Below are positions 32,646 through 60,799 of a stretch of 64,000 nt of DNA, piece by piece (position 1 is the stretch's first letter; every line of letters starts with the position of its first letter). The notes below the pieces were generated by a model, which had not been told where the DNA came from, searched no databases, and saw nothing but the letters and a program-made list of their open reading frames with translations. The position numbers and the translations under genes are program-made. Source of the stretch: Saccostrea cucullata (lineage: Eukaryota); contig NW_026933001.1 in NCBI RefSeq assembly GCF_032062105.1, positions 1-64,000 on the forward strand. The letters run 5' to 3'.

Positions 32646-35600
32646 CTATAACCGTGCCAAGCCATCAATCGTTTGATAAAGATTCTCGGAGTCCACAATA
32701 CAACCTTGTCTCGCGTAGTGTTTTAGCAGTTCTTTCCAAACACCGTCACATTTTAGCAGTTGTTGATTTCCTAAAATAGAAATTTAAAATTCTACATAAA
32801 AATTACGTAGCAATTATGGGGAAGCAATACTATATGTTCTTTCAAAAAGAAAAAGAAGATATTACCAGGGATTGTCAATTTATGTACAACTGAATATTTT
32901 AATGCCAATAGTATCAAAATTTAGACATCTCTTTCTTTTTGTCCCCCGCTTGAAAAGTGGGGGATATTAATTTGGGTTTGTCCGTCCGTCCGTCCGTCCG
33001 TCTTTCTGTCTGTCTGTAACGCTTTCGTTTCCACACGATATCTCGAGAACCCTTTGAGCTTTTGCAATGAAATTTAGCATAGCAACTCCCTATGGACTAA
33101 AGAAGACCCTATTGATTTTGAGGTCAAAACGTCAAAGGTCAAGGTCATAAATAAGCAAATTCTGTCTGTTAAAACACTTTCGTTTCCACACGATATCTCT
33201 AGAACCATTTGAGCTATCGCAATGAAATTTTACATAACAACTCCCTGTGGCCTAAAGAAGACCCCTATTGATTTTGAGGTCAAAAGGTCAAAGTTCAAGG
33301 TCGTAAATTTATACATTCTGTCTGTGTATAACACTATCATTTCCGGGCGATATTTCAAGAAGATTTTGAGCTTATGCAATGTAATTTTATACCAAAACTC
33401 CCTAGGACGTCTCTCGCCCCTCTCAAAGTGCCCCGCCCCGTTTGTTTTATTAGTATTTATAGTATTACATGTCGCTATTTTTAGCGCAGGGGCATGAGGA
33501 GAGTTATTGCGTATAAAACAGGTTCTCGGCGGACTTTATGTTCTTATTACATCTATTATAACTGTTTAATATTTTAAGGCTAAATAAATCAAACACCATG
33601 GATTGTGTAAAATTTTGAGAATACCGAACATGAAAACATGAATATATACATGTATGTGACTTCAGTTCTGCATATACTTCATAATGGACTTACAATTAGT
33701 ATGAAAAACGTCAGTCAGCATATGATTCAATGATAAATTGTATTTGCTGACAAGGTCATTGTATCGACCATAGAACTTACGAAATGATTACTTTAAACAA
33801 GCCTGCTGATATTCTTGTTTCATCAACTTGCTTATCAATAATTTACCTCGTTTTAGAAATTGTTCATACGTAGAACAGGAATGGAAATTACCATTGTTAA
33901 TTGACAATACGTCGTCGATATATCTAAAAGTCGAGTTGAAGTAAGTTTTTTCTTCCTTTCATGCATAAGATTTTGCACAAATTCTGCTTCATATGAATAT
34001 AAAAATAGGTCTGCTAATAACGGAGCGCAATTGGTACTCATGGGAATTCCATTAGATTGTTGGAATACCTGGTCTCCAAAAACCACATAGATATTGTCAA
34101 TCAGAAACTCAAGCATCTCTTTGATGTCAACTTCAGAGTACTTGTGTGTGCAATCAGAATGTGTTTTAACAAAATAATTTTGTAAATGACCAATGACCAG
34201 ATAAGTGAAATTACGAGTTCCATTTTTATTTTAAAAAGCAGCTCTCGATGATATCAAAAGGCCTGACTTTAATTTCTAGTGGGGAATAGTTGTGTTTAAA
34301 GTTGAAAAGTCATAAGTTTTTAAGCTGTTGATTGTTATTGTACCTATTATAATAAGTCCTTTCCTTGGCCTAGTAAGAGCCACGTTGATCTGATGTTGAT
34401 CAGTAATAAAGCCCAGATTCTGCATGCACCACCCCCGTGTTGGATGTTCCTCTATTCTGTAGTCTGGGAGGGACCGTACAGTGCTAAATATCACGTAATC
34501 CCATTCTCCACCTACAGAACAATAAGATTAAGCAGGTTAGATCTGGTATCGAAGACACGTGACATTCAAAAAGAAGAGGCTTGTAAAATAGATCTCCATA
34601 AAAATCTGAAATGCAAAATAGGCATAAAAAATAAAATAATTTTTTTAAATTAAGAAATAAATAAAATTTATGATTTAAATTTATAACTAGAAGTCTCTGT
34701 CGAGACTGTAGCTTTACTGGTTTGTATTTATCAAAAACCATTACACTATTTTATGTATCTTTGTGTAGTCTACTTGTGTGCCAACTTATTTTGAAATCAA
34801 ACTAAAAATGTAGAAGGAGTAGCGTTTTATAGGAATTTCACAGAAAATTCTATTTTTAGTAACCATGGTAACACCGTTCATCGAAATCAAAAACCGATGC
34901 ACTATTCTATGCATCTTAGTGTAGTCTACTTGTGTGCCAAGTTATATTGAAATCAGACCAAAACTAGAAGGAGCAGCATTTTAAAGGAATTTCACAGAAA
35001 ATTCTATTTTTAGTAACCATGGCAACACCGTTCATCGAAATTAAAAAGTGATGCACTATTCTATGTATCTTAGTGTAGTCTACTTGTGTGCCAAGTTATA
35101 TTGAAATCAGACCAAAACTGTAGAAGGGGTAGTGTTTTAAAGAAATTTCACAGATAATTCTATTTATAGTAACCATGGCAACACCGTTCACCAAAATCAA
35201 AAACCGATGCACTATTCTATGTATCTAAGTGTAGTCTACTTGTGAGCCGAGTAATACTGAAATCAGACTTAAATTGTAGGAGGAGTAGCGTTTTGAAAAA
35301 TTGTTTACAGACAGACGGACGGATGCCGGACGCATTACTATCGCATAATCTCTTCTGGTCTCTGACCAGTAGAGCTAAAAACATTGAAAAAGTAATGGCC
35401 CAAGAATAGAACCTTATGGCAGTCCCTTCTCATTTGGCAGGCACTCAAAAACCGTGATTTAGGTCTTCGTTTCCAACGGAAGACCTTCTACTGATTCATT
35501 ATTCTTTTTTTTCCTTCTACTTCCTAGACTCCAACTTTAAAGCTTCATATCTCACTCACTTCTCAATAAATTCCGCTCAAATTTTCAAAGTATATAGACG

Positions 35601-38600
35601 TTACTAAACTCTATCAGAATATGCTGTCTAACATTTCAAAAATTTACTTCCGCTTTTGAGTTATTTTCCTTTAAACGAAAATTTAAAGGCTTTCATTTTC
35701 AGACAAAGGCTGGAGATGGCAAAAGCTGGAGCAGAAAATCTACTGATTTTAGATAATAGAAGGATTGAAGTTATGCACATCGGTTTTTGTTTTTCAATTT
35801 CTCTATTCAAAGTGGCGCTTTATAGGGGTAAAAATTATTTTGCTTTTTATCTTCTAAATTAACAATATTTTGTTAAAATATATAGAACAAAATTTGTGCT
35901 GAATTACAAGATCTTTCAACTGATATCTCGGAAAAAGGACCGATCACTAAATTAAGGGATTTATAGGGGCCAAAAGTTTTACCTCAAGAAATATTGATAA
36001 TTTGTTATACATCAAAGAAGCAAAGTTATTCAAAATCTCTAGTAAAATCTTTTTAGATCATCAAAATATGTCCTTTGACATCACTTCCGACCATACCGGA
36101 AGTAGTCAGAAAATGCATATTTTTGCAGTTCTTGACACTTTTTTGGGAAATATTTGTCATTGGAAGCATAAAACTGAATGTTCTGTCCGTTGACGTCACT
36201 TCCGGTCGAACAAGAAATAGCAAAAATGGCTTACTTTTGCAATTATCAACATAATTTGGAAGATTTAAATCATTATCATTAGAGACGTCTATATTCTATT
36301 TTTTAAATTAAAGTTAGTTCCGGTCAAGCAGGACGGAAGACCTAGTCGTTGCTTTGCAACGAGCCTTGCTCTAGTTTATATAATATATGTTATAAATCAA
36401 TAGAACGCCACCATTAAACACCAGAACCACTGACCCAGGGACCATGAAATCCACTGTTGTGGAAGAGGCAGTTATGCTCAACGTTAAAATAACTATGTAC
36501 TTAGTTAATTTATTAATACCCAAAACCAGAGAAGATATGTGAAATATCATCATTCAACGTTTACGCAGTGGTTTATTTTTCCTTTAAAAAAGGTATTTTA
36601 AGAGTTTTTTATAAAACCGATTACAGATTTTCCAACCCACTGCCAACGTTCCGACCGAGAATCGGTTACAAACTGCCATCCCTATGGCATAAACCGAAAC
36701 CGCCCGCTGCCTTTTACATAATTTAATATCTTAAAGATGCAGACTATAGCCTTAGCAATGTGCATACCTTGACTGGATACCACAGTATTTGCTTCAGCAT
36801 TGTCAAAACCTTCCATCTTAAGTGCTTCGTTTATCGCATGGCGCTGTGCATTGTATTGCGTCAAAATTCTAACTGTTGGTGGTGCCAACTTTTCATTGTT
36901 TACCAGGTAAGTATAGACTTTAATCTACAACGGGAAAGAGATATTTAGTACCTTTGTTTATTCTAAAATAACTTTGTTTGCAAATCAAGGGACAAAGTCT
37001 GGCAACTAAAACAAGCACTATGAAATTTTGCCTTGATAAAAGAATTTTACCACAAGTTCTACTTCCGCCAAATTGCTACGTGACTGTTCATTTCCTTCTT
37101 CGGTGGCCACCGACAAACATTTTTCTTCTCCCTCTACATGACAAAACAGTAGAGGTATATTCCATTTCCTCCATAATGTAAGGGGTTTCTCAGTGTGCCA
37201 TGTTTTGGAACTTTCCGTATTAAGCTTGTCTTTGTAAAATTGTTTTGATGGGAATTCGCAAATTTTCGGGTTCTGAAATAGAAATAAAAAAGAGAGCTTT
37301 CAAAAGAGTAAGAGTAAAAAAAAAAGATAGACTTGTGCTTATAAATATTAATAAGATAAGAAGGTTGCCTCTATATATTAAATTTCAAAATCTTCCAAAC
37401 ATACCATGCGGTACTGGGACTTTAATTCCACTGCATTGTCAGAATGCCGTTGAAATAAAGATTTGGAAAGCCCTAATCTACAAGCCTCGGGACAAATGAT
37501 GATTGGTTGAAGTTGTTTGTGATCTCCAATAAGGACTACTTGTTCTGCTTTCGTTGCAATAATTGGAGCGATTGTTTCTGGTTCAGTGCACATTCCCGCT
37601 TCGTCAATTATCAATTGAAAGACTTTTCCTTGTGTTGCTTTAAGTAATTTCGGATTTGTTGCAACGGAAGTTGTGCAAAAAATGACGTCATAATGTTTGA
37701 GCTCTTCTTGCGTAGCCTTGCTGAGTATCTTCATATACTTAATAATTTTTTCAGGATCAACTCCTTCTGGATTTATTTGAAAGAGCTTATCTAGCTGCTT
37801 TAGTTCCCTTGCATATGGTTTACCGTCTTTTCTTATCACGTTATGGAGTGAAACATCCGCTAAGTCCGGGTCGGGTCTGTTGTCTGTTTTAGATGTCTTA
37901 TTGATATACTCTCTACCAGGTATAGGAAATACCGTGTTTTCAATAGAACTTCCGTACATTCTAACTATATTTGGACACAGTGTTTTCAACTTCAGATGTA
38001 GCTGTCCTAATTCAGAACACCGATTTTAAACAACTTAGCAGAAAAATAAACTAAAAAGTTAAATTAGAATTTATATGTTTAGGGGCGAAATATGAACAGT
38101 TTAATTATCAGAATTAGAAAATAAGCAAATACATTGATAATACATACGTGCTACTAAATCAACGGACTTGTTGGATGGCCCACAGTATATAACTTGTTTG
38201 TGGTCACCGCTGTTTTTCCGATACTCCAAATTTATGTTCACAAATAATAATAAAAGCTTTATGCCAGTCGAAGTTTTTCCTGTGCCTGTAATTATATATA
38301 AATCATTTTAGTTCATCAAAAGTTGATTTTGCAAACTTTGTTTTTGCCTTTCAGGATTCTTGGGTAATTTCTGATTGGGTTCGTGATTTCTATGAACTTA
38401 CTTCTAAATCTCAAACATAACTAAATCATATCTTATTTTTTCTCAAGAAAAGCAATAAAACTATTTTAAACTTATGTCATTCGAGGATATTGACCTGGAG
38501 GGCCTTGTATCAGTGTAAATCGTGAAGACAGAGCTTTTTTAATCGCCTCTGACTGTTTATTATTGTTTGGCTGCAAAACTTCTTCGAATCTGTTGGGATC

Positions 38601-41600
38601 TTGAAGTTTTCCTAAGTTTAGGTGTCGATCATCTGTAAAAAATCTACTAAAGTTTATAATAATAAATTTATTTAAATGTATGCTTTATTGAATTATTGAT
38701 TCGAATTAAGAAAATAAATTGCATAAATTAAACGTTAAATCGTATTGCAATTAGAATGAAATCGACAAAAATGCAGTTGCAAAAATTAGATTGCTTCTTT
38801 TGATAGACAATAACTGCAAAATGCAATGCAATGTTGGCAATTTTTGCATTTAAGTTTCAGTTCAACCAGGATAATTATTCCACATTACCATTTTTCGTTG
38901 AAGTGACTTTTTATATACAGTATTCAGTAGGGCTTCAATTTTCGAGTATTAAGTAGGTAATCCTACAAACTCGACAATTTTGAAGTGCATGTGATTTATT
39001 TAATTGTAACTTGGAGGTAACCCAAGAAAGTAGATTTACCATGTACTATTTTTTTTGTAATGTACAAAGAATTATAGGAGCGGATCAATGATAATTACCA
39101 AGTTTAGGCATCTCTTCTCTCAAAGCTATTGACTTCGCCAGATTTGTTGCCTTATCAAGCTTGTTCAAATTTAGTTCAATGCGTCTGCCAAAGAAAAGGT
39201 AGGAAGATTTTGAATATACATGTACATTGTCAAATTTACATAATTTACTTCTTTTTACATTTTCACCTATCATTACAAAGTTACCTATCTGAAACTGACA
39301 TCTGAAGAATTTCTATTGTACAAATACAGGTTGTGGCATTGATCATTGGGAGTGTTGGTTTTCTGCTTTTCTCATGCAACTGAAATTGTACTGTAACTTC
39401 GTCATTGATTATGTCCTTTTGAATAAATTTTGTCTCCCCATGGCCAACCCATATCCATCTCCTGTTCGGAGGAGAATTGAAACTATCTTCCAAAGGACAC
39501 CCATTCTGCGTCTCGCACCGAATGCATAGAAAGTTCCTTTCAAAAGGAACAAATTTTCCATCGCTCTCTGTTTTTTCCCATTGGAAATTCAAATCTCGCT
39601 GCAGGCAAAACGTTTTGTTTAATACGAAAAAGCCATATCCAATCTTAGAACTGCAAAATCGTATAGGTAAATGATTGATGACTACTGATAAAGAGTTTGA
39701 TGCATTGGTTATGGATTCCATTCGAAAAATTTCCGACCAAACTTTAACGTATTCATCTGGTGTCATCGGTCTGTTGCCTGCATGTCTAGTGGCATAAGCT
39801 GCGAAACACTCAATTGGATCAGACATGTGTTGAATGCAGCATTTCACATTCTTTGAAATTTCTAAAAGATGAATAGTTGGCACCACAATCCCTCCTTTCT
39901 GTTCAGCTCCAAGTTGAAGAGGAATAACTTGACCACGGTCGAATGATAAACTAAATTCTGTGTACTGTTGAACTATGGTATCATTATGTTTTTCAGAAAT
40001 AGCATCAAGATGTGTCTCAAGACACTCAGGGACAATGGGTAGAACCTCTCCATCATCAAAATTCTCCCCCAGTGTGTGTATACTGTCATTTATCATTGCG
40101 TTTATGAACATCTTCCATCTCCCAATGGAAACAAAATTTACTTTGCGATGTGGATTTAAGTTTACAGAACCACCATTCGAAACAGGCGTGGAAGATAAAT
40201 ATTCCCTCCAAGAATATAATCGTTGTAACCAAGATAAAGTTAGAAGATGATCTCTTTGACCATTTTCTCCAAAGAATGGTTTTGAACTTACTTTCAGCAA
40301 ACAAAATTCAATTTCATTGCATGTTTTTGATAAAGCTCGCAATCCTGGGAAACATACAACAAGAGATTTTTCAGTGGCTGAAATGGCCAATGCATGAAAC
40401 AAACGAGGTTTTTCTTGAAGTTGCCTTCCTAAATGTAATAATTGACATTGTCTTTTAAATTCTAAATTACGGCACATGTTGATTTTCCTACATAACATAT
40501 CAATTTCGTTTTGTGAGTAGGGCGAGGGTTTTTTGTCAATCTTTGCATGGACAAGTCGACCCACCATTAAATCTGCATAACGGCGTATAGGAGATGTGAA
40601 ATGAACGTACGGATTAATTCCTAAAGAAAAATGGTTACCATCATGACGACATGATCCAGAACAGTTATAAACTGCTGTCTTTTGGAAAGATATCCATGAT
40701 TCATAAGCCATGGCTTGTTTTGGATGAAATTCATCAGTGCCAATTAGTCTTTGTACATTCTTGTACCTTCCAAAGCTGAATTCCAAATTCATTTTCTTCC
40801 AGATATACTTTTGCACTGGTATTTGATGTGAAATGGTATATTCATGAATATTGTCTATTGAAAGCTGATTTGGCGGAAGGTTTTGATTTTGTAACGAAAG
40901 AACAAAATTGGCAAAAACAGGATTATTTTCTTCCCATTCTTCCATTTTCCAAGGAGATGGTTCGCTTTGAGTACGAAGAGGAATACAATCTGGAAACGAT
41001 TCGTGAAGGAATTTTGCTATGAAACTATTCGCATGTATCATGTATTCTTCTACCATAATACGTGCATCAAGTGATTTATTGTATTCATAATATGATTCGG
41101 TGAATTGTTGTTCAAATGGAATAGAAAAAATCTTTAACCCCAAGCGTTTATAGCGTATTTTCTTCGAAATGTCATGTAACATAATCAATGTGTTCTTAAA
41201 AGCATCATCGCTGCTCTCATTTTCCGTCAATAACTTCTGAACTTCTTGATACGTAAAGGAGCGCCTTGACTTTACATATGTTCGTTTGACTTCTGTTCTC
41301 TTGTCTATAATATTTCCGGACCCGTCTATGATGAAGAAGACTGACAAAGTTTTCCTTTTATGAAATGGAAGAAGACTACATAATCCTGTTGCAATAGGTT
41401 CTGGTAACATATGATACGCACGATGGTTTCCTCCTGGGTTAAATGTGGTTGATCTTTCTTGTGCCTCTAAATCAATGTCATCATCCCTTTTAACTATGCT
41501 TCCAACGTCTGCAATATGGATACCAACTTCAAAATGGGAATCTGCAATCTCCTTTATGCTCAATGCATCATCTAAGTCTTTGGATTTTTTATCATCGATA

Positions 41601-42544
41601 GTAAACACATGAAGGTTTGTCAAATCCTCTCTCTTTTCCTCTAATCTGATATCTGACTCTCTTTCTAGTTCACCCACTTTCTCTATCGTTTTTTCTTTGT
41701 AGAGGACAGATACTTTGTTTTCCAGGCAAATAAGGTTTAGAGATGTTTCTACATTATGTTTTGGGTCATAAACCTTTATTATTGCACCTATGGGATAAAC
41801 ACCTTCCCACTTTATGAAACAAACGAGAAAGGTGTATTCTTTTCGTTTTGATTGATCTATGAACTTTACTTCATCTATTATAAGTTTTTTTGTTATTTCA
41901 TTCAACTTGTATACGTTAACGCCTGGTTTTCTTGGTCCCTCAAATACCTCCTTTAATGGATAAATTTTAGGCACAGTTTTACATACGGGTATCATGAAGC
42001 GGTCGTCCATAGTGCAAACAAATACAGGGTATTCTGGAATTGATTCGTTTCTTTTTGTTATGCAAACAACTTTCCCATATATCTTATTTCTATGCTCATC
42101 GTTATGTAGAATTTCCACTACGACCTCGTCTTCATTAAAGGCTTTGCCACATTTTGATCTTCCTGATATTTCTATTTCCATTTCGCCGTCCATTGTGGTA
42201 CAGACCGCTCTGTGAGCATTAAATATTTCAATTTTACAATGCTTGTAGGTCTCTGGATACTTTGCACAGCGCTCAAAACTCTCACTGATGTCAAGCATTT
42301 TGTCATACATTTCTACTTTTGTACTGAAACAATCGTTCACAAAACCATCTGACAAGTCAAGCCCAGCACTAAACAGGGTTTCGCTGAAACCGCTATCGTC
42401 CAAGAACTCATTTCTGTAGTGTTTCAGTGATTTGTTGTAGAAATAATTGGTAGTTTCCTGGTCATAATCGACTTCCTCATCATATTCCTCCAATAAATCG
42501 TCATCGCTGAATGACTCAGATGCTGGATCTGACTCTTCTGACAT
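32646..42544 (-). CDS. HELZ2: HELZ2-like RNB (RNase II/R) exoribonuclease - UPF1-like SF1 helicase fusion, copy B (~1631 aa)
   Basis: Exons 42544-39285, 39184-39099, 38632-38495, 38285-38148, 38006-37405, 37272-37051, 36924-36768, 34511-34344, 32770-32646 splice in frame. RNB motifs FTIDDKKSKDLDDALSI, EVGIHIADV, YVHFTSPIRRYADL. Helicase motifs LIQGPPGTGKT, YCGPSNKSVD, IIDEAG, LIGDHKQLQP, QYRM, TVVSSQGGEWDYVIFSTVRS, NVALTRPRKG. In-frame TAA upstream of ATG 42544. HELZ2-like; strict orthology not established. Confidence 0.88.
32936..33545 (+). mobile_element. DINE/HINE-like element with (GTCC)n/(GTCT)n microsatellite and ~155-bp tandem units
   Basis: Start tttgtcccccgcttgaaaagtggggg (hairpin), then (gtcc)5. 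Repeated ctttcgtttccacacgatatctc.agaacc.tttgagct..gcaatgaaattt..aactccct.tgg.ctaaagaagaccc.tattgattttgaggtcaaa at ~33022 and ~33177. Confidence 0.75.
33680..34275 (-). mobile_element. Penelope-like retroelement reverse transcriptase fragment (degenerate, internally deleted)
   Basis: MLEFLIDNIYVVFGDQVFQQSNGIPMSTNCAPLLADLFLYSYEAEF, then a frameshifted FNSTFRYIDDVLSIN (RT catalytic YIDD), jumping to ..SFRKFYGRYNDLVSKY. Lies in the last intron of copy B. Confidence 0.85.
34686..35380 (-). mobile_element. DINE/HINE-like element (reverse orientation) with ~155-bp tandem units
   Basis: About 3.5 units of cactattctatgtatcttagtgtagtctacttgtgtgccaagttatattgaaatcagaccaaaac..gaaggag..gaatttcacagaaaattctatttttagtaaccatggcaacaccgttca, followed by (gaca/gacg)n and the terminus ctcttctggtctctgaccagtagagctaaaa. 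Confidence 0.8.
35459..36377 (+). mobile_element. HINE-like element with AGGTCTTC..GGAAGACCT subterminal inverted repeats
   Basis: Start ttaggtcttcgtttccaacggaagacct; end ggacggaagacctagtcgttgctttgcaacga..tctagttt (subTIR plus 3' hairpin); recurrent acttccg motifs. Confidence 0.65.
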
Positions 42545-46342: not shown

Positions 46343-46418
46343 ATATTATATATTATATATATTATATATATTATATATTATATATATTATATATATTATA
46401 TATATTATATATATTATA
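46343..46418. repeat. (TATTATATA)n AT microsatellite
   Basis: Direct reading of the sequence. Confidence 0.9.
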
Positions 46419-46912: not shown

Positions 46913-48046
46913 ATAGTATACCGGTATTATTCATACTTGTTTAGAAAAAAAACCCATACTTACAGATTAACACCAGCAAAATCCACGAGAAAAGATTAAT
47001 GAAGAAATCGACTATGTTTCTTGGGAACGAGAAAACTCAGTCAAATGATACTTTTTAAGACTTTCAAAACAGGAAAGTTATGTAAGTTTCCTATACCCAT
47101 GGAGCAGCAGTCAAAGTAAAAATTGTATGATTACTCTAACTTGAATCAATCATTTTGACAACCTTGCAGAAAACGTTGAGAAAATATGTTTTTATTTAAA
47201 AAACAACAACAACAAACAAACAGAAAGTCAGATTGGTTGGCCTACTCAGTGGTTGATTATAGAACCTAGTTCAAGGAGTGTGAAACTGGCTTATAATAAA
47301 CTGTGCCAGGTGACCTAAAATGCTTAAGTTCAATCCTTTTTTTCATAAAGGGGAATAGATTAAAAAGTGAAAATTTTATAAAGATCCATAATGTGGTATT
47401 GTTTGAAGTTCTTTATCCATATATGTATGTATCCAAAGTCTAAAATTATATTAAATTTAGTTTTTTCTTGTGTTTATATTTATTTTTTCTCTTTCCGTTA
47501 TCCATACCTATGAATTTTTTGGACTAGTTATTGTTTATAAGCAGATGTCTGAATTGTATTAATTAAAAATAGACAATAATACCCAGTGAATAGAAAATTG
47601 TGGAAATTTAATACTTATATGCAGCATTTACATGTATCATTATCACAATATAAAAAATATATTAATAAAAACATTCATCAGAATGTTTAAACAGACATGA
47701 ACATTTTTACGTCAGTATGAAATTTGTATGGAATTTCTCATGCCATTTCGATAGTTTTCGTCAGTATGAAATTATATGTCAGTATGAAATTTGTAACATG
47801 GTTGTATAAAAATTATTGAAATAATACATAAGCTTAGAAAAAGTCCTTACAATAATGTGAAGTATACAAGGTAAAACTAAAACTAAAAACGTTTGTAATT
47901 TAGAAAGGCATTAAGATCATAATTAATATATAAAGTCAATATATGATTTCAATTTTCATAAGATGTATGCAATAAAAGCAAAATATTATTAATGAATAAG
48001 CTTGTTAAAACCATTTAAAATAGCACAAAATATTATTTGATTTTTA

Positions 48047-48480
48047 AAACAAGATGCGTTTGTGAAACACTATGCGCCCGACGACAACGAAGTTCCAAAA
48101 AAACATTTCTAGCAGATAGGTTACAGTCAAGGTAACAAGGTCATTGACCTTGGTGTCATTTGAAAGAACTTAATTAGTGGAGTATGCATACCAAATATAA
48201 ATTTTCTATTTCTTTTGCTTCAAAAGTTATGGCGAAAGTTCGGAAAAGCTATTTTTAGCGTATAGGTCACAGTCAAGGTCACAAAGTCATTGACCATGGT
48301 GTCATTTAAAAGAGCGTCATTAGTTCACTACGCATACCAAATAAGAAGTCTCTATCTCTCATGGTTCAAAAGTTATGACGAAGGTTAAAATTGACAACAG
48401 ACAGACAAACAGATAAACAGATAAACAGACAGGACAAAAACAATATACGCCTCGCATCTATCGATACGGGCGCATAAAAA
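48047..48480 (-). mobile_element. DINE/HINE-like element (reverse) with two ~150-bp units and (GACA)n
   Basis: Starts aaacaagatg..; two copies of acagtcaaggt.acaa.gtcattgacc.tggtgtcattt.aaaga..cataccaaata..aaaagttatg.cgaa; (gaca)n; end cgcctcg..gggcgcataaaaa. Confidence 0.7.
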
Positions 48481-48484
48481 TGAA

Positions 48485-48680
48485 CCCTGCAATGTGGTTA
48501 AAGCGTATGCTTCAGAGTCTATAGATATAAAGAGTTGATCCTAACGTCGCGGGTTCGAATCTCACGGCGGGAAGTGTCCCTCCTGATGATATCATTTAAT
48601 CAGATGTCCCTAGTTGCAGTAGGTGATGGTTCAAAAGCCATAAGAGCCGGATACACGTAAACTTTGCAGGCCCCCACTTG
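48485..48680 (+). mobile_element. tRNA-derived SINE (degenerate)
   Basis: A-box-like tgtggttaaagcg and B-box GGGTTCGAATC; downstream gtccc..gcagtaggtg shared with the SINE at 60942. Confidence 0.6.
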
Positions 48681-49206
48681 CAAGTTATGTAAATATTAAT
48701 ATTGACATTTAAATAAAGCAAAATGATGGTACAAAATATGAAAAAAATACGTTTGCTTAATTGATATATGGTTGTGTCAAAATCTTAAAATCTGGGAAAT
48801 TGGAACCATAGACAGAAAAAAATATGCCTTAAATCCATTTAACAAATTAATTGAAATGATATGGTCTTTTCAATCAAGACGCTGAAAATCCTTGAAAAAT
48901 TAACTTTCAATGGATCTTATGGCAAAGTTAGATGATAAAGGAATCAATTGATGTTGCAATGATGTGAATGCTGAAGAAAAAGTCACAGTATAATCATACA
49001 CGTGTGCTATTTGTTTCCTTGTGAATTTCTACATTCATTTTTATTCCTATTTCACTTTATTTTACTCTATGTTTTTCATCCAATCCAGTTCCCTGTTATT
49101 TTCGACACAATCCGTGTCCCCAGCTGTATTTCGGTTAATATAGATTTCCTTTCGTCTTTTCATTTGCTCAAAATATTTTTCGATCAGCTTGTCTTATAAA
49201 ATAATT

Positions 49207-52200
49207 TCAATTTCTTCTCTTTCGCTTCAGTGGAGTGAGATTTTGTTTCTCAGCATCCACAACGCAGCCCAATTGGTTGTAGTGCCTTATCAGTTCTCTC
49301 CAAACAAGTTCACATTGAAGCAGTTTCTTATTTCCTAGAATAGCCAGGAATTATATAAAGAGTATTAAAAAATGATAATTATTCAAGCAGCAAGCTTTTT
49401 CATGTGATTTTTTATATTAACCATTTTATATTTTTTAATGAAATAAATAACGGTATTTTCTTGTCAGATACATTAATGAAAGAAATTATACCAGTCAATT
49501 ATGGTTTAAAAATTTTATATCAATAGAGACGCTAAAACATAGGGTTATGATTTCTAGAGAACAATGAATTATACCTATGATAATAATGCCTTTTCTGGCT
49601 CGGGTGAGGGCAACATTAATTTGGTGTTGATCTGTAATAAAACCTAAGTTATTCTTGCACCAGCCTAGTGTAGGATATGATTCAATCCTGTAATCTGGTA
49701 GTGATCTGACAGTGCTGAAGATCACGTAGTCCCACTCACCACCTAGGAATGGAAAGGAAGAAGAATTGAAGGTGTGGCATAATGAACTTTACTCTTTGTC
49801 TCAAAATATAAAAACGTACGTACCTTGACTGGATACAACCGTATTAACTTTATAATTGATGAATCTTCTCTCTTTTAGAGCCTCTCGTATCGCAAAACAC
49901 TGTGCATTGTACTGCGACATAACTTTAATGTTATGCGTTTCTATTCCGTCATGAGACATCAGATAATTATAAACTTTAACCTATAAAAGCAAGACAAAAT
50001 GAATCATTTTCTTCTTATGTTGAAAAAGCATTAAGATTTTTTTTTAATTTCAGGTGTATTGTAATTAGACGGAAAGATGGAAATAATTTTAAATGGAATA
50101 TAGGGGCGGTTGGAGGATCGTTAAAATTGAAGAACGTACCACATGTTCTACTTCTGCCTTGTTGCTCCTTGATTGCTGATTTCCTTCTTCTGTGGACACT
50201 GCTAGGCATTCTTCTTCTCCTTCCACGTGACAAAACAAAAGAGGGGTATAAGGATTTATCCATATTTGTAAAGGTTCCTTAACTTCATATTTTTTAGAAG
50301 GTCCAGTTTTGAGTTTTCCCTTATAAAACTGTTTTGATGGAAATTCGCAAATCTTTTCATTCTAACAAATGAAATACAAACATTTATTAGCTTTTATTGC
50401 TTTTTCACATTGAACGTATGCATGTATAAATAACACAAATGTTCACAAAAAAACTCCTACCATTCTATATTGGATGTCTAAAAACACAGCATTGTCAGCA
50501 TATCGCTCAAAAAGGGATGTTGAAAGACCCAATTTAGCCGCTTCTTCACAAATAATGATTGGTTGGAGTTGTTTATGGTCACCAATGAGAACTACCTGTT
50601 CTGGTTTTGCAGCAATAATTGGAGCCATGGTTTCTGGCTCAGTGCACATCCCTGCCTCATCAATTATGAGCTGGAATATTTTATTTTTTGTAGCTTTCAG
50701 AAATTTTGGATTTGTTGCTACGGCAGTTGTGCAAAAAATAACGTCATAATGTTTAAGCTCCTCCTCCGTCGCCTCTGAGAGTAATTTTTTATATTCAATA
50801 ACCTTTTCCGGGTCAATACAGGTACCATCTGGATTTTCCCTGAACATTTTATCAAAAGCTCTTAGTCTGTCAGCGAAAGGTTTTTCTTTTTCTCTAATCA
50901 AGTTATGTAGTGATACTTCTGCGAGATCAGAATCCGGTCGATTGTCTTTGCATGATGTTTGATTAATGTAATCTCTACCGGGAATGGGGTATACAGTACT
51001 TTCCATGGAACTTCCATACATTCTTACCATTTTCGGAGAGATATCTCTTAAATGCAATCTTATCCATCCTACATCGGAAGGAAAAAAAGCACTTTTAGTG
51101 CATAAAAAGTATTTTGAGCAAGTTAAATTTGATTGAAAATTCTGATGGAGATAGAAATGATCATATTACCGTATAACGGGTATTTTCTGCGGTTGTCCAA
51201 TTTTTTGCGGAATTTTGCGGATAGGACAAATCCGCAAAAATTACAATTGCAAAATATTTTTTATATGACTTATGGTATTTTATACATGCAAGTATGATAA
51301 GTGGTGTGTCTGCAGACTCACGCATGGTCAACAATTGAATTTGTTTGCAGAGAAAATTCACAATTTTGAAAGGGTGACATCGAAACTCCTTATTTTGGAT
51401 AGCTGCAAACAAAATATGACAGCTTTTTTTTCTTTCTTATTTTCCACTTTTCAATTTTGTGTTTTGTCTTGAGACCGTGATTACTGCTTGTGTATACAAC
51501 ACGGTTTGATTGTCTTGTAAATTTCATTCAAATCAGACGTCTGACAGTATTAGTTAATTTTACAAAGAGTGACTAAAAGCTAGTAGTTTAATAGCACAAT
51601 GCCTGTTCTCATGCACGTTGCATTCATGCGCCTGAATGAATTGAAAAACGTAGTAATTGCAGTGTTCAAATAAATCTTAGAGTTTGATGATCCTATACAC
51701 CCCGTAAATAATTTTTTGCAGTAAAGTGCAACCGCAGAAATTGAAAACGCAGAAATTAATTTGCTACCTTTTAGGGGTTAAATTGCAAAAATTTCCAACC
51801 GCAGAAAATACCTGTTATACGGTATATCCATGACTTTAAATACATACGTGCTACAAGATCAACAGACTTGTTTGAAGGTCCACAGTAAACAACTTGTTTA
51901 TGATCACCACCGTTTTCTCGAATCTTTAGATTGATGTCTTTAAAAAGCATGATGAGCTTAATTCCAGTCAAGGTCTTCCCTGTGCCTATTACAATTGTAA
52001 ACAATAAACTTATTAACTTTATAAGGCGCCTCAATGAAGCATTGTTAGACTAAAATCTTACGCTTTTAAAATATCCAGTTCATGCTTACAGCTAAAAATT
52101 CAGAAGTTGTACTATATTGAAAGCTGAACACATTTCTTTAAAAAACAAATAAAGAATGGTTGGTATATAACTAACCAGGTGGACCCTGTATGAGAGTAAA

Positions 52201-55200
52201 TCGAGATGACAGAGCCTTCTTTATAGCCTCTAACTGCTTTTCATTGTTCGGTTGCAATGATGCGTGCATCACGTCGGACTTTGTTTGTTTTGCCAATCTC
52301 ACGTGGATGTCGTCTGTAAAATATCACGTGATTTTGTTATTTTCTGGTGCTAAACAAGAACTATATGATAGCAGTATTTTTTGGCAAATCACTTACCTAA
52401 AGATTGAATTCTTTCTCTTAAAGCTATTGACTTTGCAAGTTGTTCAGCATTTTCTAAACCTTTAAAGGCATCCTCAATATTCCTAAAAATAGAGAATATA
52501 TTTTTGATTCATCCGTTGATTACTTATTCATTTAAAGGTTAACTCATTTTTGTATTAATAACTTACTTGTCTGAGTCAGACATTTGAAGTATTTCAATCG
52601 TGCACGATGGACTGCTTGCATCCCTCATCGAAGGTTCTGGTTTAGGACTGTCTTTGTGCAATTTAAAGTGTACTTTAACGTCTCCGCTTGTTTTACCTCT
52701 TTGAAAAGTCTTTGTCTCTCCATGACCAACCCATATCCTTCGTTCATTTGGTGAACTTGCTATTCTTGCCTGCAAAGGTTTTCCATTTATTAACTCACAG
52801 CGAATGCAAATAAAATCTGTTTGGTATGAGACACACTTCTCAGTATCTTTTTCTAAGTGCCATCTGAAGTCTATATCCCTCTGCAGACAAAATGATTTTA
52901 AAAGTATGAACGAACCATCGTAGGTTTCAGTGGATCCATGAAAGTCAACGCGTAAATCGTTTATGATTATTGGTATGGATTTTGTAGCATTGGTAACAGA
53001 CTCCATTCGAAAAATGTTGCGCCATCTTTGAATATATTCAGATGATACCATCCTTCTGTTGCCTGCATGTCTAGTGGCATATGAAGAGAAACATTGAACG
53101 GGATCAGACATATGCTGTAGGCAGCACTTCACATTTTTTGTGTTTTCAAAGAGATGAATCACTGGCGTTAGCATTCCCTCATTTTGCTCAGCTCCCATTT
53201 GAATAGGAATGATTTGGGCAGTGCTGAAAGTCAAACTGAAATCAGTATACTGTTTTCCGATTATGCCATCTAATGTCTCAGAACTTGCATCTGAATGAGT
53301 ACCTTGACACTCAATAGCACTTGGCAATACTTCCTTTTCAAAGAAAAAATTCTCATCCAGCAAATTCATATTGTCGCTAATAAGACATTGTAACAACTGT
53401 TTCCATTTCCAAAGAGTCGGAAAAAATACTCTTTGATGTGGATTGATCTTTACTGGTCCTCTTTTAGAATTTGATGCATTTGACGAAAAACCAAGTGCTG
53501 AATATAAACGCTGCTGCCATGATAGAGTCAATATGTGCTTTTTATTTTCCTCTAAATCGGGTTTTGATTTTAGCTTTAGTAAATGATATTGAACTTCACC
53601 ACATGATTTTGTTAATTCTCTTTGACCAGGAAAACAAACTAAAAGAGATTTTTCTGATGCAGATACGACCAAGCTATGTAACATAACTGGTTGTTTTTTA
53701 AATTGTCTTCCAAGGTGAAGTAAACGACACTGCCTCTGAAATTTTCTGGTTTGGCTTCCATTGATTTTTTTGCACAGCGTTTCAACCTCTCTCTGAGAGT
53801 AGGGTGATTCATTCTGGTCAAGCAGAGCATGCACGAGACGATTTGCAATCAAATCTGCATAACGTCGAATGGGTGACGTAAAATGAACGTACGTTGTAAT
53901 TCCCAAAGAAAAATGTCTTTTCTCTTGAGATGACCCCGAACATCGATAACTTGAAGTCTCTTGAAATGACATCCATGATTCATACGCCATTGCTTGAAGT
54001 GGATGAAACTCGTCGGTGCCAATTAATCTCTCCATATTCTTAATTTTTTTCTCTTTATAACTTGACACAATTGCGTCCCATATATGTTTTTGTAATGGTA
54101 GTTGCTGCAATAAATTATCTTCAGGAATATTTTCGAAAGATAAAGTTCTATTTGTCGAAAGTTGTTGATTTTGAAGCGATAAGACGAAATCTGCAATGTC
54201 AGGGTAATTCTCTAACCATTCATTAATTTTGGAAGATGGGGGTTCGCTTTGTACTCTGAGAGGAACACAGTCTGGAAATGTTTCAATTAATGTCTGGCCT
54301 ATAGTTTGATTAACAAGAATCATACATTCTTCTACTATTATATGAGCATCAAGATTCTTGAAATAAGAGTCATCGCTGTCTTCGAATGATGATTCAAATG
54401 GAAAGGAGAATATTTTATGTTTCAAGCGTTTTAAACGAATGTTCTTGGTTATGCAATGCAAATTTTGAAGATCCTGTGTAAACTCATTGTTTTCAGTTGT
54501 TTCTGACAATAGTGTTTGAACTTTTTGATACGTAAAACGTCGTCTGGATTGAATAAAAGTGCGGTCAATCTTTTTTTCCGAGACATTTCCATTTTCATCG
54601 ACTTTGTAAAAAATTGAAATCGTTTTTCGTTTCTCTCCAGGAAGAAGACTACAGATGTCTGTTGCCAAAGGCTCTGGAAGCATATGATATGGTGGTTTGT
54701 TTTTTCCCGGATAGAAAGAATTTGACCTCTCTTGTGCCTCTCGATCAATAGGGTCATTCTTCTTTATGACACTGCCAACATCAGCAATATGAACACCGAT
54801 TTCAAATTCTGTGTCTGATATTCTTCTTATACTAAGTGCATCATCTAAGTCTTCTGAGTTGTTTCCATCAATTGTAAAAACAGACAAACTATCTGAAAAA
54901 TCTGTCCGTTTTTCTGTTTTTTTCTGATCTGGCATTTCCTCTCTTATTTTTTCTACTTCCTTAACTGTTTTCTTTTCATAGAGTACAGATACATTATTTC
55001 TCAGACAAAGCAGCCTGAGTGAGGTTTTTATGTCACATTTCCCATCATACATTCTGATGACAGCCCCGAGGGGATACAATTCATTCCAAGCAATGAAACA
55101 CACAAGGAAAATATATCCTTTTCGTTTTGATTGATCGATTGATTTAAGTCCATCAAATATCAGATCCTTTCCTCTTTTGTTATACTTATAGATCTCAACT

Positions 55201-57149
55201 TGAGATTCTCTTTCTCGCTTTGAACTCAGAATATGTATTTTGGGAACTGTTTTGCAAAGCGGCTTCATATGGTATGTTTGATAATGATCAAGGGTACACA
55301 CAAAGACAGGGTTTGTAGGCAATGCTTCATTCCGATTCGTTATTCCGATGACTTTTCCAAATATTTTATTGCAATCAATTTCAGAACTCTTAGTAGGTTG
55401 CACTGATCTGATCGGTAAATTTCTAGAATTTTTCAAAATTTCAACAACAACCTGGTCTTGATTAAAGGCTTTTCCGCATTTAGATCGTCCTGAAATTTCT
55501 ATCTCAAGATCCTCATCCAAGGAAATACAAAGTGCTCTGTGTGGTGTTAAAATTTCCAATTTACAGTGTTTGTATTTGCTAGGAAACTTTTTGCAAAGAT
55601 CAAGAGATTCCTCTTTGCTGTGCATTTCATCGTAAAATTTTCTAGTTTTGACACGCATAAAGTTATTTACACAACCTTCTGAAAGATCAAGACCATTTTT
55701 TAAAAGGTTTTCATCGATGTTTTTGTTTCGGTTTAGAGAGTCGTAAAATTTGCGCGATTCTTCAAAAAAATTATCTTGCAGCGATTCTTCATCTTGTGAT
55801 TCACTTTCCTCATCACTGGATTCAAAGTCAGTGCCAATTTCCTCTAACTTTTCATGGGGTATTGGGTCGAATTCATCTTCAGAAATTAGTCCCGGAGCAC
55901 TGATTTCTCTTGCATTTGGCCTTTTTAATTTCGAGTGTGATTTGGCTTGCGCTTTCGGAGGTTGATGATGTTGTAGAGAATTCCCTTCATCCGATATTTT
56001 TTGTCTTCTGTGTCTTCTCCTTCGAGGTCTTCCAACAGGTAAATCGAATTCTGTTACGTCTTTCCAGCTTTTAATAGGACTATTAACTTCTGCAATTGCA
56101 TTATGGACATCTCCAGCCTTGTATTTCTCGTCCCATGGGTCAAACGTCCCACTGCCTTGGTTTAGTTGGTTTAGGTTATCTCTTCGTTTTGCTGCAAAAA
56201 TTTTTATCTAGTTTATCTAGAGGAGATTTGATGAAAAATTAATATGATATGTCAATATGATTTTCATAGAGATGTCTTACGTCTGCTTCTTGATTTTTTC
56301 TTCTTTAATGTTTCGTTTGCTGGTTTTCTTTGTTCTTGAGACTAGAATGTAATGAAAAAAGAGACCCATTAGTTTTAGGATCATGTGTGTGTCACTTCAC
56401 AAGTTTTTGTTGATTCATATGTCTACCTTGTCTTGATCCCAAGAACCCTAACACATTTCAAGTTTGAACCAAAGAGTAATAAATCTGAAAAATACCAATA
56501 AGGCTCATGTCATTTTTATGAGTTTTGAAATACGATATGATGTTGATTTCCTGTTTTTCATTTTTGAGGATTTTGGTTTTAATAAATCTAAATGTTATAG
56601 TTATTTGTAAAACAATTTTAGGCATAGATACGTTTGGATTTGAATTGTAGTGGAATCACTAATTTTGATTATTTTAATTTTTCTTAACTTTTTCTTTTTT
56701 ATTTCAGATATAAATTTTAAACATTTTAATCCCTTTTGAGCAAGTTTTGTAGAAAATTTTATCCAGTTGTTTTGAGAAAGTCAAAAATTTTAAAAAGAGG
56801 TTTTTAAATCCCCCCCCCCCCATTTTCAAAAAAATCAATGTAAAACGTAATAACTTGATACTGGTTCCNNNNNNNNNNNNNNNNNNNNNNNNNNNNNNNN
56901 NNNNNNNNNNNNNNNNNNNNNNNNNNNNNNNNNNNNNNNNNNNNNNNNNNNNNNNNNNNNNNNNNNNNNNNNNNNNNNNNNNNNNNNNNNNNNNNNNNNN
57001 NNNNNNNNNNNNTCCGAAATTTCTCAAAGCAGTTTGTCATTTCCAAAATCAATTTTTAACACTTTAAAATTTTTGTCAAGTTGTTTAGATTTTTTTGTTA
57101 GATTTTTTCATTATAAAAACGTGAAAAATTTATATTATAAATTTTTTGG

Positions 57150-57209
<60 letters not shown>

Positions 57210-59011
57210 TATATATATATATATTAAACAGCACTTTATACTTGTAAAAGCTCAAATTTAATCCTACCATGGTAAAGCCATGTGTATCTTTTATCCACTC
57301 TTCATCTACTTCGCTTTCACTTTCTGGGGATTTTTGTTGATGTAATCTTGTCACCAATTTCTTTATGAATATATGACAAATTTTTTTTTACATTCTTGCA
57401 CTTCTTTTTAAATATATGAAATTATGCATTAAGCATTTAGCTTGATTTTTTAAAAATACCTCGTCATTTGCCTCCTGTGCTCTTTGAATGGCTAAATCTA
57501 TTTTCCCAACTTTTTCCAGTGCATGGGCCCAGAGAATTAAAAGTGATTTAAATTCGGGATATTGTTGGAAATCTCTCCGTACTGAAAAAGAAAAAAAATC
57601 TTAAATTTATTTCCTTTTTGAATGACAATGAATTCATAAAAAAAGAAAAAATGTGTACACCATATTCTAAAGCAAATTATTTTTCCTGCATTCGGCTTTT
57701 TTAGAATCTATTTTCTGATTAGTAGAGTCGCAGTCCTACAACACTTTTTATACCCCCCGCTTGAAAAGCGGGAGGGTATATAAATTCGTCCGTCCATTAG
57801 TAGCACGTCTGTACACACTTTATGTTTTCTCTATCCGCAACTTTTTTTTGAAATTAAATGAAACTTTCACAAATTACAACATTGTGATATTTTACTTTTT
57901 TATTCGACGCGTATTTTAGGTTTCTTAAGCAAAACATGGACATTGTCATTTTTTGTTTACTAGCGTATATAGAAGCTTCTGGATAACATTTCATAGGACA
58001 GGTTAATTTACACAACTAAAACAATATCAAGCAACACATTACTTGGGACAGTTCATTTAGTGAGCTCATTGCTCACAGTACCTCTAGTTTTTCTAGAGTT
58101 TTTTAAAATTCTTTTGAGAAATCACATTCATATAAGTCAACCTGTTCTAGAAAATAAGATACAATTTTGTTTAACTTATCTCCAGGCCTTTTTTTTTTGT
58201 TTGAAAAGATAGGCACTTTGGCTATACATTTTATCTAACCTAGCTAATCCTTTTCACGCGGTTTATTTCACTCTTGATCTTACTTACAGTTCATGCACAT
58301 TCTGCAAACTACTTCGTCCAAACCCTGTGTCAAAAAAATTTGAACTTTGAAATTTTGAAATTATTCAAACCAGTAAAAAGGACCAGAAATTTAACAATTT
58401 CTATGTATATCTGCTAAATTTTTACATAAATTTAGGCAAGAACAAAAGAAGTAAGATAAAATAAAATCCAATGCCAATTTAAAAAAAAAATGGAGATTGT
58501 AAAGTTCTAAACACAGCATGGACTTAATTTTCTTTAGATTTTTGTCTATTCAAAGATTATAATATATATAAATACAGAACTTATATAGTTAATAACTTGG
58601 GTGAAATTGCTCAACTTTTTTTCAAATGGTTTGTTTAATTTGTTAACTATTTTAATACCTTGAACCACTTTACCTCTTGAAGAAATTTCTTGCCACTAAA
58701 GACAAATACTTTAAGCAATTCTCTTCGTATAATTTCAGTGGTGCTGTGATTTCCGGCATTCAGGTCCAGCATATGGTTATATGAAGTTCTTATCTCGAGC
58801 ATACAGTGCCATACTATCGGATGTTCTGCCACGGAGTACTCATCTATGACTTCTTGTATTTCTCTAAGCAACTTGAGTTTTCTCTTTGTAAGTAAACATG
58901 AAAAACATCATTAAGATAAATATATATATTGTATGTGGCCAAATCAAAAACAAAGAAATATAGTCTAAAGCTTAGACAACTACTACCGGATATCTGAAAA
59001 TCAAATATTCT

Positions 59012-59054
<43 letters not shown>

Positions 59055-60799
59055 TCATAGGTTTATTACCAATCCCCCCTTCCTCTTAATAAACAAAACC
59101 CGGTTAACTTTCGACATTAAAATGAGGGATATTGAAATCGATTATGGTACCTTGTGGAAAGGGTAAAAAGAAGAAATCGACTTGTAAATGTAACAGTTGC
59201 CTATGGTCTTACTTAATCTTACTTTTGACCTAACTCGTAGAAACTTATACGACGTACAATTCCTATACTTCAGCCATTCCATCAACTTCTGTGTTTGAAT
59301 CACCAATAATTACGGTGTGTGAATATAAAATTTGGAGTTTTCTATACAGTATTTCTACTTTTTAAAAATATCAATGTATAACTGCATGTACTCGCAGATA
59401 CTGTAAATGCATTAATTAGTATCAGTTAAAACTAGAGGTACTGTGAGCAATGAGCTCACTAAATGATACCCCCCACCTCCCATATGAATATATTGGCAGT
59501 GTCCATGTTTTGCTCTGGAAAATCCAAAATATATGTCAGATCAAAAAGTAAAATAAGAGGTACACAATGGCAATATGTAATAAAGATTTTGAGAAAGTTT
59601 CATCAAATTTCATTCAGTGGTATGAGAGGAGTTGCGGATAAGAGATGGGTATCCAAAACGTAACAGACGGACGGACGGACAATGACGTACAGACGGACGG
59701 AATTAACGATTACTATATACCGTCCCGCTTTTCAAGCGGGGGGTATAAAAATCATACATACTGCTATAGAAATACTTGGATCATTCAAGACGCTTAACCA
59801 GACAGAAGTTGGATCCAAATTCTCGGAAGAAAGCAGCTTCACTGAAAAATGAAGTAGAGTTTTAAAAAAAGTAATCAAAGGTGTTTTTCTTTTATAATTT
59901 ATGTCATAACTGCGTATTAAAAGCGTAAAATTATGTGTTGCAAAGCTTTAACTTAAGTGGACAGTGAGACTCCCTGAGACACTATATCCGCGGTTAGATT
60001 TTAAACCATGACATTTATATGCAAGTACAACTTAATTGAATGGGTTTTGTTGTTGATAGATCTGTTTTCATCGTCTAGATATAGGTACTGTCATACTTAG
60101 ATTTTGACTGTTTCTACATTTTTTGTATAAATCCATTCAGTCATATGTAAAGCCTCTTTTTAAGCGTAAATTAAATAATTATGATCTAAAAGATGCTTAA
60201 TTTGCGACAGTATGGATTTATACAAAACTGTAAAAACAGTCAGAATCTAAGTATGACAGTACACAAATGGTATATTGAATTATGAGTAAATGCATTTTGG
60301 TTTCTGAAGATCACAACATGCATGTATTTAAAATGTTTTTTTTCTTACCTCTGTAAAAGCACTTTGTCTCTAGAAATGGATCAAAAACCTGTCCAAATTG
60401 AAATGAATTAAGAAATTTATTTTGGTATTATTCTTCTGATATACTCATTCTCGTTAATACCCAATTAAGATATTTTTCCCATACTTACAAGATTTATTAT
60501 ATCATTTGTATATGACATTTTTTTCAAATTAATTTACAAACATACTAACATATAATATGACCAATCATGATTCTAAGCATACAATAGAAATATCATTGAA
60601 GTACCTGTCCTGTATTTAAGAGATGCAAACAGTGGTTGTATATTTCATTCGCAGTGTCTTCATTCTCCACTCCGTTGTGGTAAATCTCACCAGACTCGTA
60701 CAGTTGTCGGGTAAATTCTAAAGCCTTTGCATTATCGTGTTTCTCAATACATACCAGAGCTGCCTGGAAAAAGCTTAGCCAGTTCTCGTCTGTTTCCAT
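49207..60799 (-). CDS. HELZ2: HELZ2-like RNB exoribonuclease - SF1 helicase fusion with helical/TPR-like N-terminus, copy A (~2035 aa)
   Basis: Exons 60799-60605, 60388-60349, 59841-59762, 58883-58674, 58324-58288, 57581-57460, 57360-57268, (gap; possible 56447-56427), 56341-56281, 56191-52567, 52482-52397, 52313-52176, 51985-51848, 51068-50461, 50361-50140, 49980-49824, 49742-49575, 49334-49207 chain with consistent phases. Motifs FTIDGNNSEDLDDALSI, YVHFTSPIRRYADL, QGPPGTGKT, IIDEAG, GDHKQLQP, SLFER, QYRM, NVALTRARKG. The N-terminal exons are less certain than the RNB/helicase exons. Confidence 0.85.
51167..51824. mobile_element. MITE with ~26-bp TIRs (TACCGTATAAC...)
   Basis: taccgtataacgggtattttctgcgg ... 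ccgcagaaaatacctgttatacggta (one mismatch); repeated cgcagaaa subterminal motifs. Confidence 0.85.
56869..57012. other. Assembly gap (N run)
   Basis: Run of n characters inside an intron of copy A. Confidence 1.
57153..57224. repeat. (TA)n microsatellite
   Basis: Direct reading; another (TA)n at ~59014-59050. Confidence 0.95.
57745..58090 (+). mobile_element. Short DINE/HINE-like element (copy 1 of inverted pair)
   Basis: ttttataccccccgcttgaaaagcggga..cgtccgtcc ... catttagtgagctcattgctcacagtacctctagttt. Confidence 0.75.
59428..59751 (-). mobile_element. Short DINE/HINE-like element (copy 2, opposite orientation)
   Basis: aaactagaggtactgtgagcaatgagctcactaaatg ... gacggacgg..tcccgcttttcaagcggggggtataaaa; reverse complement of both termini of 57745-58090. 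Confidence 0.8.
60085..60262. mobile_element. Foldback/MITE with ~55-bp TIRs
   Basis: gtactgtcatacttagattttgactgtttctaca..tttgtataaatccat vs atggatttatacaaaactgtaaaaacagtcagaatctaagtatgacagtac. Confidence 0.85.

Follow-up and report, generated by a model that had tools for sequence, protein, structure and literature searches.

Gene structure and domain order

Two neighbouring genes of the oyster Saccostrea cucullata raise the question of whether a HELZ2 protein with an RNB ribonuclease domain and one helicase instead of two is a working RNA-degrading enzyme, and in which process it could act. The genes, here called A and B, were located by six-frame scans on the minus strand of contig NW_026933001.1 (assembly GCF_032062105.1), within a window comprising its first 64,000 nt (Table 1). 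Both retain all catalytic aspartates of the nuclease, and on our trees both belong to one clade of short HELZ2 forms spanning bivalves and gastropods.

Gene A encodes, in this order, a TPR-like (tetratricopeptide repeat-like) domain, a basic/acidic linker, OB_HELZ2, RNB, a further linker and a single Upf1-like helicase. Gene B has a short acidic N-terminus followed by OB_HELZ2, RNB and a single helicase, and lacks the TPR-like domain. In each protein Pfam finds a single OB_HELZ2, RNB, AAA_11 and AAA_12 domain, with E-values in A and B of 1e-19 and 5e-22 for OB_HELZ2 (PF25049) and 3e-77 and 2e-70 for RNB (PF00773). The first-pass annotation of the window, made from its letters alone, had described diverged paralogues with open frames, shared intron phases and six identical exon lengths, and splicing bears this out. 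The lengths (86, 138, 138, 222, 157, and 168 nt) and phases are the same in A, B, and copy C, the next gene upstream of A; the Walker B exon is 608 nt in A vs. 602 nt in B; the proteins are 57% identical over 1,634 columns, and the frames equal P0001 and P0013. An in-frame stop precedes the start Met of gene B, which is shared by its closest relative, P0241. The one masked stretch, intronic in gene A, leaves the gene model untouched. Both genes already carry the database annotation 'HELZ2-like' (P0001 is a 100% match for A).

Table 1. Coordinates of the HELZ2-type genes and their parts (window positions, except for the last row)
Feature	Position	Strand	Details
Gene A, coding sequence	49207..60799	-	17 exons, 2,035 amino acids; GT-AG splicing reproduces P0001 exactly
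Gene A, exons 1-7	57268..60799	-	predicted TPR-like domain of ~240 amino acids (alignment and AlphaFold)
Gene A, giant exon, 3,625 nt	52567..56191	-	OB_HELZ2 55326-55622; RNB 53817-54908
Gene A, giant exon motifs	four-Asp motif from 54872; FTSPIRRY at 53882	-	
Gene A, helicase exons	49207..52482	-	86, 138, 138, 608, 222, 157, 168, 128 nt
Gene A, helicase motifs	Walker A split 52176 / 51985; Walker B 50661; motif VI 49617	-	
Gene B, coding sequence	32646..42544	-	9 exons, 1,631 amino acids; GT-AG splicing reproduces P0013 exactly
Gene B, giant exon, 3,260 nt coding	39285..42544	-	OB_HELZ2 42044-42268; RNB 40541-41632
Gene B, giant exon motifs	four-Asp motif from 41599; FTSPIRRY at 40600	-	
Gene B, helicase exons	32646..39184	-	86, 138, 138, 602, 222, 157, 168, 125 nt
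Gene B, Pro codon directly after the motif VI arginine (NVALTRPRK)	34366..34368	-	DNA and P0013
Full-length HELZ2, contig C12842	~277000-291200		zinc fingers, two helicases; dead RNB, degenerate helicase 2

As had been proposed, neither protein shows zinc fingers, whether by Pfam or by a custom zinc-finger hidden Markov model, and each has one Walker A/B set only. The short models might be ordinary full-length HELZ2 genes cut short by annotation or assembly, given that the assembly is fragmented and many database rows are single-exon open reading frames (ORFs). However, the upstream neighbours are close, with 6,662 nt from the stop of A to the start of B and 6,368 nt from the stop of copy C to the start of A (6.7 and 6.4 kb). 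Eleven tblastn queries, some of them taken from the zinc fingers and helicase 1 of four full-length HELZ2 proteins, matched nothing below E 0.18 in these two intergenic stretches, and upstream exons of either kind were rejected. Moreover, none of 44 fuller short rows carries zinc fingers or helicase 1, and P0017, a short protein of 2,109 amino acids, fits in a contig of 6,825 nt. Truncation is thus contradicted by the evidence, and we give it almost no credence.

Nuclease and helicase modules

The RNB sites of A and B read IDGNNSEDLDDA and IDDKKSKDLDDA, with all four catalytic aspartates in each, and both proteins keep HFTSPIRRYAD including the arginine of SPIRRY. A structural model of the last 1,025 amino acids of the gene A giant exon (mean predicted local distance difference test, pLDDT, 81.8) matches Dis3L2/Rrp44 at E 2e-40 and also RNase R, with Dss1 among the fold matches. 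The alignment to Dis3L2 covers 887 columns with a template modelling score of 0.71 by target; the S1 domain is not separately delimited in it.

In the helicase, both proteins have GPPGTGKT, split by an intron, and IIDEAG. Gene A has motifs Q, I, Ia, II, III, V, and VI, and its best match among solved structures is UPF1 (E 6e-50). In gene B, motif VI keeps its arginine, with proline in place of the following alanine (NVALTRPRK). Among 93 collected motifs, this residue is alanine in 90 and proline in two, namely gene B and one Patiria HELZ2. The motifs listed by the first-pass annotation are therefore all present, and its claim that both copies are catalytically intact stands for the two nuclease sites; the helicase activity of gene B, judged from this proline, is uncertain.

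Phylogeny and range of the short form

We collected 236 RNB-core rows and, with near-redundant and short rows excluded, placed 165 on a tree with RNase R as the outgroup and no DIS3-type rows. A and B fall inside the 165-row HELZ2 group, and the short forms make up one clade of 71 rows (Shimodaira–Hasegawa-like approximate likelihood-ratio test, SH-aLRT, 100). In the helicase tree, all 17 mollusc short rows are again in one clade (SH-aLRT 100), and the helicase of A and B clusters with HELZ2 helicase 2, separately from all 12 helicase-1 rows. Both trees agree with the proposed descent from HELZ2.

Named members of the short clade come from Saccostrea, Crassostrea, Magallana, Ostrea, Pinctada, Mytilus, Pecten, Argopecten, Tegillarca, Sinanodonta, Potamilus, Mya, Mercenaria, Haliotis, Lottia, Patella, Batillaria, and Nucella. 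There is no non-mollusc among them, many rows of the clade carrying no name. As far as the trees allow, the one-helicase HELZ2 is a single clade spanning bivalves and gastropods, and the earlier description of a family specific to a bivalve lineage has to be abandoned.

The clade also bears on which part of the protein does the work. One may suppose that the helicase is the working part, stripping or remodelling viral ribonucleoproteins, while RNB serves mainly as an RNA clamp. Indeed, four short genes on two other contigs of the genome keep the helicase motifs without the RNB aspartates, two aspartates or fewer are left in 14 of the 109 rows assigned to the short clade, and a triple mutant of the human RNB still restricts LINE-1 (10.1101/2022.03.26.485892). 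Still, 85 of these 109 rows, across bivalves and gastropods, have four aspartates, as do all six copies of the array to which A and B belong, which makes a helicase-first role quite unlikely in our estimate.

In 44 short rows a helicase follows RNB; helicase 1 and zinc fingers are absent from all of them, and the helical N-terminal domain is present in 18. In a neighbouring, weakly supported group of 19 rows (P0052, P0054, P0201, and 16 others), a single zinc-finger module stands immediately ahead of OB-RNB and helicase 1 is absent, and in a Saccoglossus protein helicase 1 is reduced to a degenerate remnant; helicase 1 was therefore likely lost more than once. Saccoglossus P0299 also has a DEAD-type P-loop match just after RNB.

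Copy number, array, and selection

Genome searches with the RNB query gave 21 matches and with the OB_HELZ2 query 11, both yielding the same 11 HELZ2-type loci: six on contig C15138, which carries A and B, three on C2073, and one each on C12647 and C12842. Other RNB loci, on three contigs and without OB_HELZ2 matches, are probable DIS3-type genes. Ten of the loci are one-helicase short genes and one is full-length. The duplicated family suggested by the first-pass annotation is thus larger than supposed: A and B are indeed same-strand paralogues, but as two of six array copies rather than a pair. Five copies lie on the minus strand and one on the plus strand, and all six keep the four aspartates. 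The four short genes on C2073 and C12647 have a single helicase, whose motifs are kept (with DDAG in one of them), and a dead RNB site; their dead-site relatives group as a clade in the RNB tree.

Genes on C2073 (three, 7000-83000) and on C12647 (~18000-38200) were seen to combine TPR-like exons and helicase motifs with the RNB-dead state. The sixth array copy (C15138, ~106800-116500, plus strand) is inverted, and its RNB exon is frameshifted near 109040; it is either a pseudogene or an assembly error. Exons related to HELZ2 helicase 1 at 32-58% identity lie on C10686 (15900-18200), possibly in a MOV10- or HELZ-type gene.

For copies C and D, the ratio of nonsynonymous to synonymous substitution rates (dN/dS) is 0.24 overall; it reaches 0.37 for the N-terminal domain and 0.12-0.23 for the catalytic parts (helicase 0.12). 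Between A and B, the proportion of nonsynonymous differences (pN) is 0.25 and that of synonymous ones (pS) 0.73; the ratio of 0.12 is unreliable because synonymous sites are saturated. Judging from these values, the array copies are under purifying selection, and no positive selection was found at the domain level in the A-B and C-D comparisons.

Gene B could nevertheless be a decaying copy, the finding then reducing to one working gene and array turnover. It has no TPR-like domain, carries the proline in motif VI and has yielded no RNA evidence, and another array copy has the frameshifted RNB exon. This we regard as unlikely, since gene B retains an open frame of 1,631 amino acids with canonical splice sites, its close relative P0241 shares the start Met and the four aspartates, pN remains far below the saturated pS, and the motif VI proline recurs in Patiria HELZ2.

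Several features near the genes were recorded as well. On the plus strand at ~16600-29500 of the window, a multi-exon gene, whose exon 24992-25321 matches IFT172 (E 2e-15), is convergent with gene B, facing its 3' end. Within the last intron of B lies, on the minus strand at 33856-34230, the fragment GIPMSTNCAPLLADLFL, which has no Pfam match and resembles text near 63700-63900; we take it to be a degenerate reverse-transcriptase-like fragment. Beyond the array, C15138 carries intronless ORFs of 266, 479, and 297 amino acids (159600-162700 and 189200-190100), the 479-residue one without a Pfam match; these are probably mobile elements.

A full-length paralogue with a dead nuclease

Against echinoderm, gastropod, and fish HELZ2, only one of the 11 loci, the gene on C12842, has matches to the zinc fingers and helicase 1. 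Its RNB site, SISPGDSEEIGQA, has none of the four catalytic aspartates and is accompanied by HFVNPISRY, while helicase 2 has IDNCS as Walker B and GDGQQV. Helicase 1 retains GPFGTGKT and DEAA. By its remaining active parts, this gene presumably resembles vertebrate HELZ.

In the RNB-core tree, the gene belongs to a nine-row clade with Batillaria (SH-aLRT 100). With thinned rows added by best BLAST hit, this long clade has 17 rows, of which 15 have an incomplete four-aspartate set, vs. 14 of the 88 other long-form rows; the latter include deuterostome long forms, and 74 of them keep all four. P0321, sister to Batillaria, has a degenerate helicase-2 Walker B as well (IDSAE), and the Batillaria model stops before that motif. 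The parts of HELZ2 thus appear, from their conserved and lost motifs, to be divided between mollusc paralogues, with the nuclease left to the short copies, which would be the sole HELZ2 nucleases in S. cucullata. The subfunctionalisation proposed earlier between A and B was not borne out; a clearer partition separates the short clade from the full-length gene with its dead nuclease.

The N-terminal domain of gene A

The proposed layout of a variable N-terminus, RNB and a single superfamily 1 (SF1) helicase is correct in its order, but the N-terminus of gene A is not simply variable: residues 1-239 have alignable counterparts in oysters, scallops, a mussel, a unionid, and abalones. AlphaFold predicts an all-helical fold of 12 helices (pLDDT 90.7), whose top structural matches are TPR domains (Z 13.2, root-mean-square deviation 4.3, 156 aligned residues), a level common for helical repeats. 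Pfam detects no TPR in gene A itself, TPR_2 in three of 12 aligned members (best E 0.005), and TPR_12 in a Lottia member (E 2e-7). Foldseek returned nothing for the domain at E 0.001, a sequence search of PDB nothing below E 0.29, and the best ESM Atlas score, 0.88, is a lead only. Based on the model and the alignment, the N-terminus of gene A is a conserved, predicted TPR-like helical domain. It is missing from gene B and from several further short copies.

The full-length HELZ2 proteins P0127 (Antedon) and P0174 have TPR-like N-termini, whose homology to this domain was rejected (hhalign probability <1%). Hsp90 binding, hinted at by matches to co-chaperone TPRs, was not adopted, as identity is 7-11% and Z is within the background of helical repeats. 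Other N-termini were noted by inspection. Short forms include a canonical TPR array in front (Sinanodonta P0124), a longer helical region (Lottia P0243), and long low-complexity repeats (Argopecten P0123), and the full or near full-length HELZ2 proteins P0127, P0174, and P0299 have helical N-termini that look TPR-like by eye.

Expression and possible immune link

Gene A is spliced in RNA runs. In four runs of close but non-identical sequence (two raw oligo-dT runs, one recorded as RNA, and one guessed to be RNA), the joints listed include exact matches to at least 7 of the 16 introns, and one 2,085-nt RNA contig connects the RNB exon with the helicase exons. No RNA depth was seen at a guessed 5' untranslated exon of gene B, near 45,100, which was dropped.

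[quoted passage not shown] A priming study mentions HELZ2-like eight times in its file 5, with at least four 'sustained' after poly(I:C) among the rows listed (PMC7064767), and a single-nucleus preprint gives Helz2 as raised at 24 h of OsHV-1 infection (10.64898/2026.05.15.723513). A term look-up in the main texts of two further oyster papers, as available, gave no HELZ mention (PMC7848083, PMC13118829). Most of the induced rows are likely short forms, by analogy with Saccostrea, because ten of its 11 loci are. The immune role assumed by the first-pass annotation thus has indirect support, from HELZ2-like rows in Pacific oyster tables, rows that are unmapped to A or B.

Active nucleases of the short type might serve host RNA turnover or surveillance of transposon RNA, and not antiviral defence. 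Gene A is expressed in runs without a stated challenge, and selection is purifying, with dN/dS of at most 0.44 in every domain. Human HELZ2 also restricts LINE-1, helicase 2 mattering most (bioRxiv 2022.03.26.485892), and helz2 is a hub gene in bacteriocytes of a deep-sea mussel (PMC13401447). Against such a role, the short forms show repeated expansion, nuclease-dead copies, and N-terminal turnover, which are typical of immune families, and the Pacific oyster rows rise with both poly(I:C) and OsHV-1; we think a purely host-directed role rather unlikely.

Proposed mechanism and history

We consider it reasonably probable that A and B are a shortened HELZ2 acting as a virus-induced cytoplasmic enzyme, which unwinds structured RNA, degrades it from the 3' end and has an antiviral role. 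The OB folds would thread the single-stranded 3' end into the RNB channel, and the Upf1-like motor, loading where the paired strand has a 5' overhang, would use ATP to strip that strand away. The latter follows what was measured for human HELZ2: its degradation of duplex RNA depends on ATP and active helicases, its passage through a duplex requires in addition that the paired strand has a 5' overhang, and helicase 2 is the stronger ATPase (PMC10516660). The TPR-like domain of gene A would likely recruit partners, replacing the lost zinc fingers, and gene B would act without it or with a weaker motor.

Several observations weigh against this antiviral enzyme or the evidence for it. RNB sites are dead in four of the ten one-helicase genes of the genome. 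Inactivation of either helicase of human HELZ2 lowers ATPase activity more than additively (PMC10516660), and therefore one motor may unwind weakly. Human RNB mutants barely alter LINE-1 restriction (10.1101/2022.03.26.485892), and nuclease motifs therefore need not mark the main function. There is almost no RNA depth in two bins upstream of gene B, and the induced Pacific oyster rows are linked to A and B by names, which alone do not give architecture. As for the history, the trees are quick LG+G4 trees with SH-aLRT support only, in the nuclease-dead long clade no more than two rows have taxon names, and P0132/P0169, the cluster at the base of this clade, retains four aspartates, being the two exceptions. 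Finally, the assembly consists of 23,869 contigs, and therefore a HELZ2 locus may have been missed.

The history that we propose for the short and full-length forms begins with a HELZ2 duplication predating the split of bivalves and gastropods. One copy would have shed the zinc fingers and helicase 1 and then expanded; the other would have retained both, while its RNB and helicase 2 decayed. A bolder extension, which we find doubtful, is that this decay is complementary: the zinc-finger/helicase-1 gene, with pseudo-enzyme RNB and helicase 2, would be an RNA sensor or remodeller, the TPR-like-RNB-helicase-2 family the degrader, and the nuclease-dead short copies regulators or decoys, so that the one-chain antiviral machine of vertebrates would be rebuilt in trans.

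Comparison with known systems

The presence of HELZ2 in some corals and molluscs has been reported (PMC10516660). A search of open-licence PMC and bioRxiv, with subscription journals outside its scope, found no description of the one-helicase clade, the TPR-like domain or the dead full-length paralogue. The short architecture, which the first-pass annotation had said would count against its reading if common and already described across invertebrates, is thus common in molluscs and without a describing paper in that literature. What is undescribed within it is the TPR-like-RNB-helicase-2 subfamily found across molluscs, together with the complementary decay seen in the full-length gene; by name, the genes are already annotated.

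The separate roles of the helicases and zinc fingers are still open in the human work (PMC10516660). Molluscs supply natural half-proteins for this problem: an RNB-helicase-2 enzyme of 1,631 amino acids, far smaller than human HELZ2, which bacteria or baculovirus could not produce, and a full-length paralogue in which the other half is the intact one. Moreover, the label 'HELZ2-like' in virus-challenge tables covers three or more kinds of protein (short forms that are active, short forms that are dead, and long forms with a dead nuclease), and the six-copy array is a candidate effector locus for work on OsHV-1 resistance.

Compared with human and other vertebrate HELZ2, also known as PRIC285 or PDIP1, the OB_HELZ2, RNB, giant linker, and helicase 2 of A and B are homologous and collinear, with ~25-26% identity in the RNB region. 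The differences are the absence of zinc fingers and helicase 1, the TPR-like (A) or very short (B) N-terminus, and, in the Saccostrea genome, ten short copies beside a nuclease-dead full-length gene. The second aspartate is Asn in human HELZ2 (PMC10516660), whereas A and B carry all four. Mollusc 'HELZ2-like' database proteins include A and B as such entries, a name that hides the architecture.

DIS3L2, Rrp44, and RNase R have the nuclease fold and active-site motifs in common with A and B; unlike A and B, they have no fused SF1 helicase, and OB_HELZ2 and the tree place the oyster genes with HELZ2. UPF1, MOV10, and ZNFX1 share motifs Q, I, Ia, II, III, V, and VI with gene A, UPF1 being the best solved match, and to our knowledge none of them has an RNB domain. 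The yeast mitochondrial degradosome Dss1-Suv3 resembles A and B in that an RNB nuclease is supplied by one helicase. It consists, however, of two separate chains with an SF2 helicase, whereas A and B each combine the nuclease with an SF1 motor in one chain.

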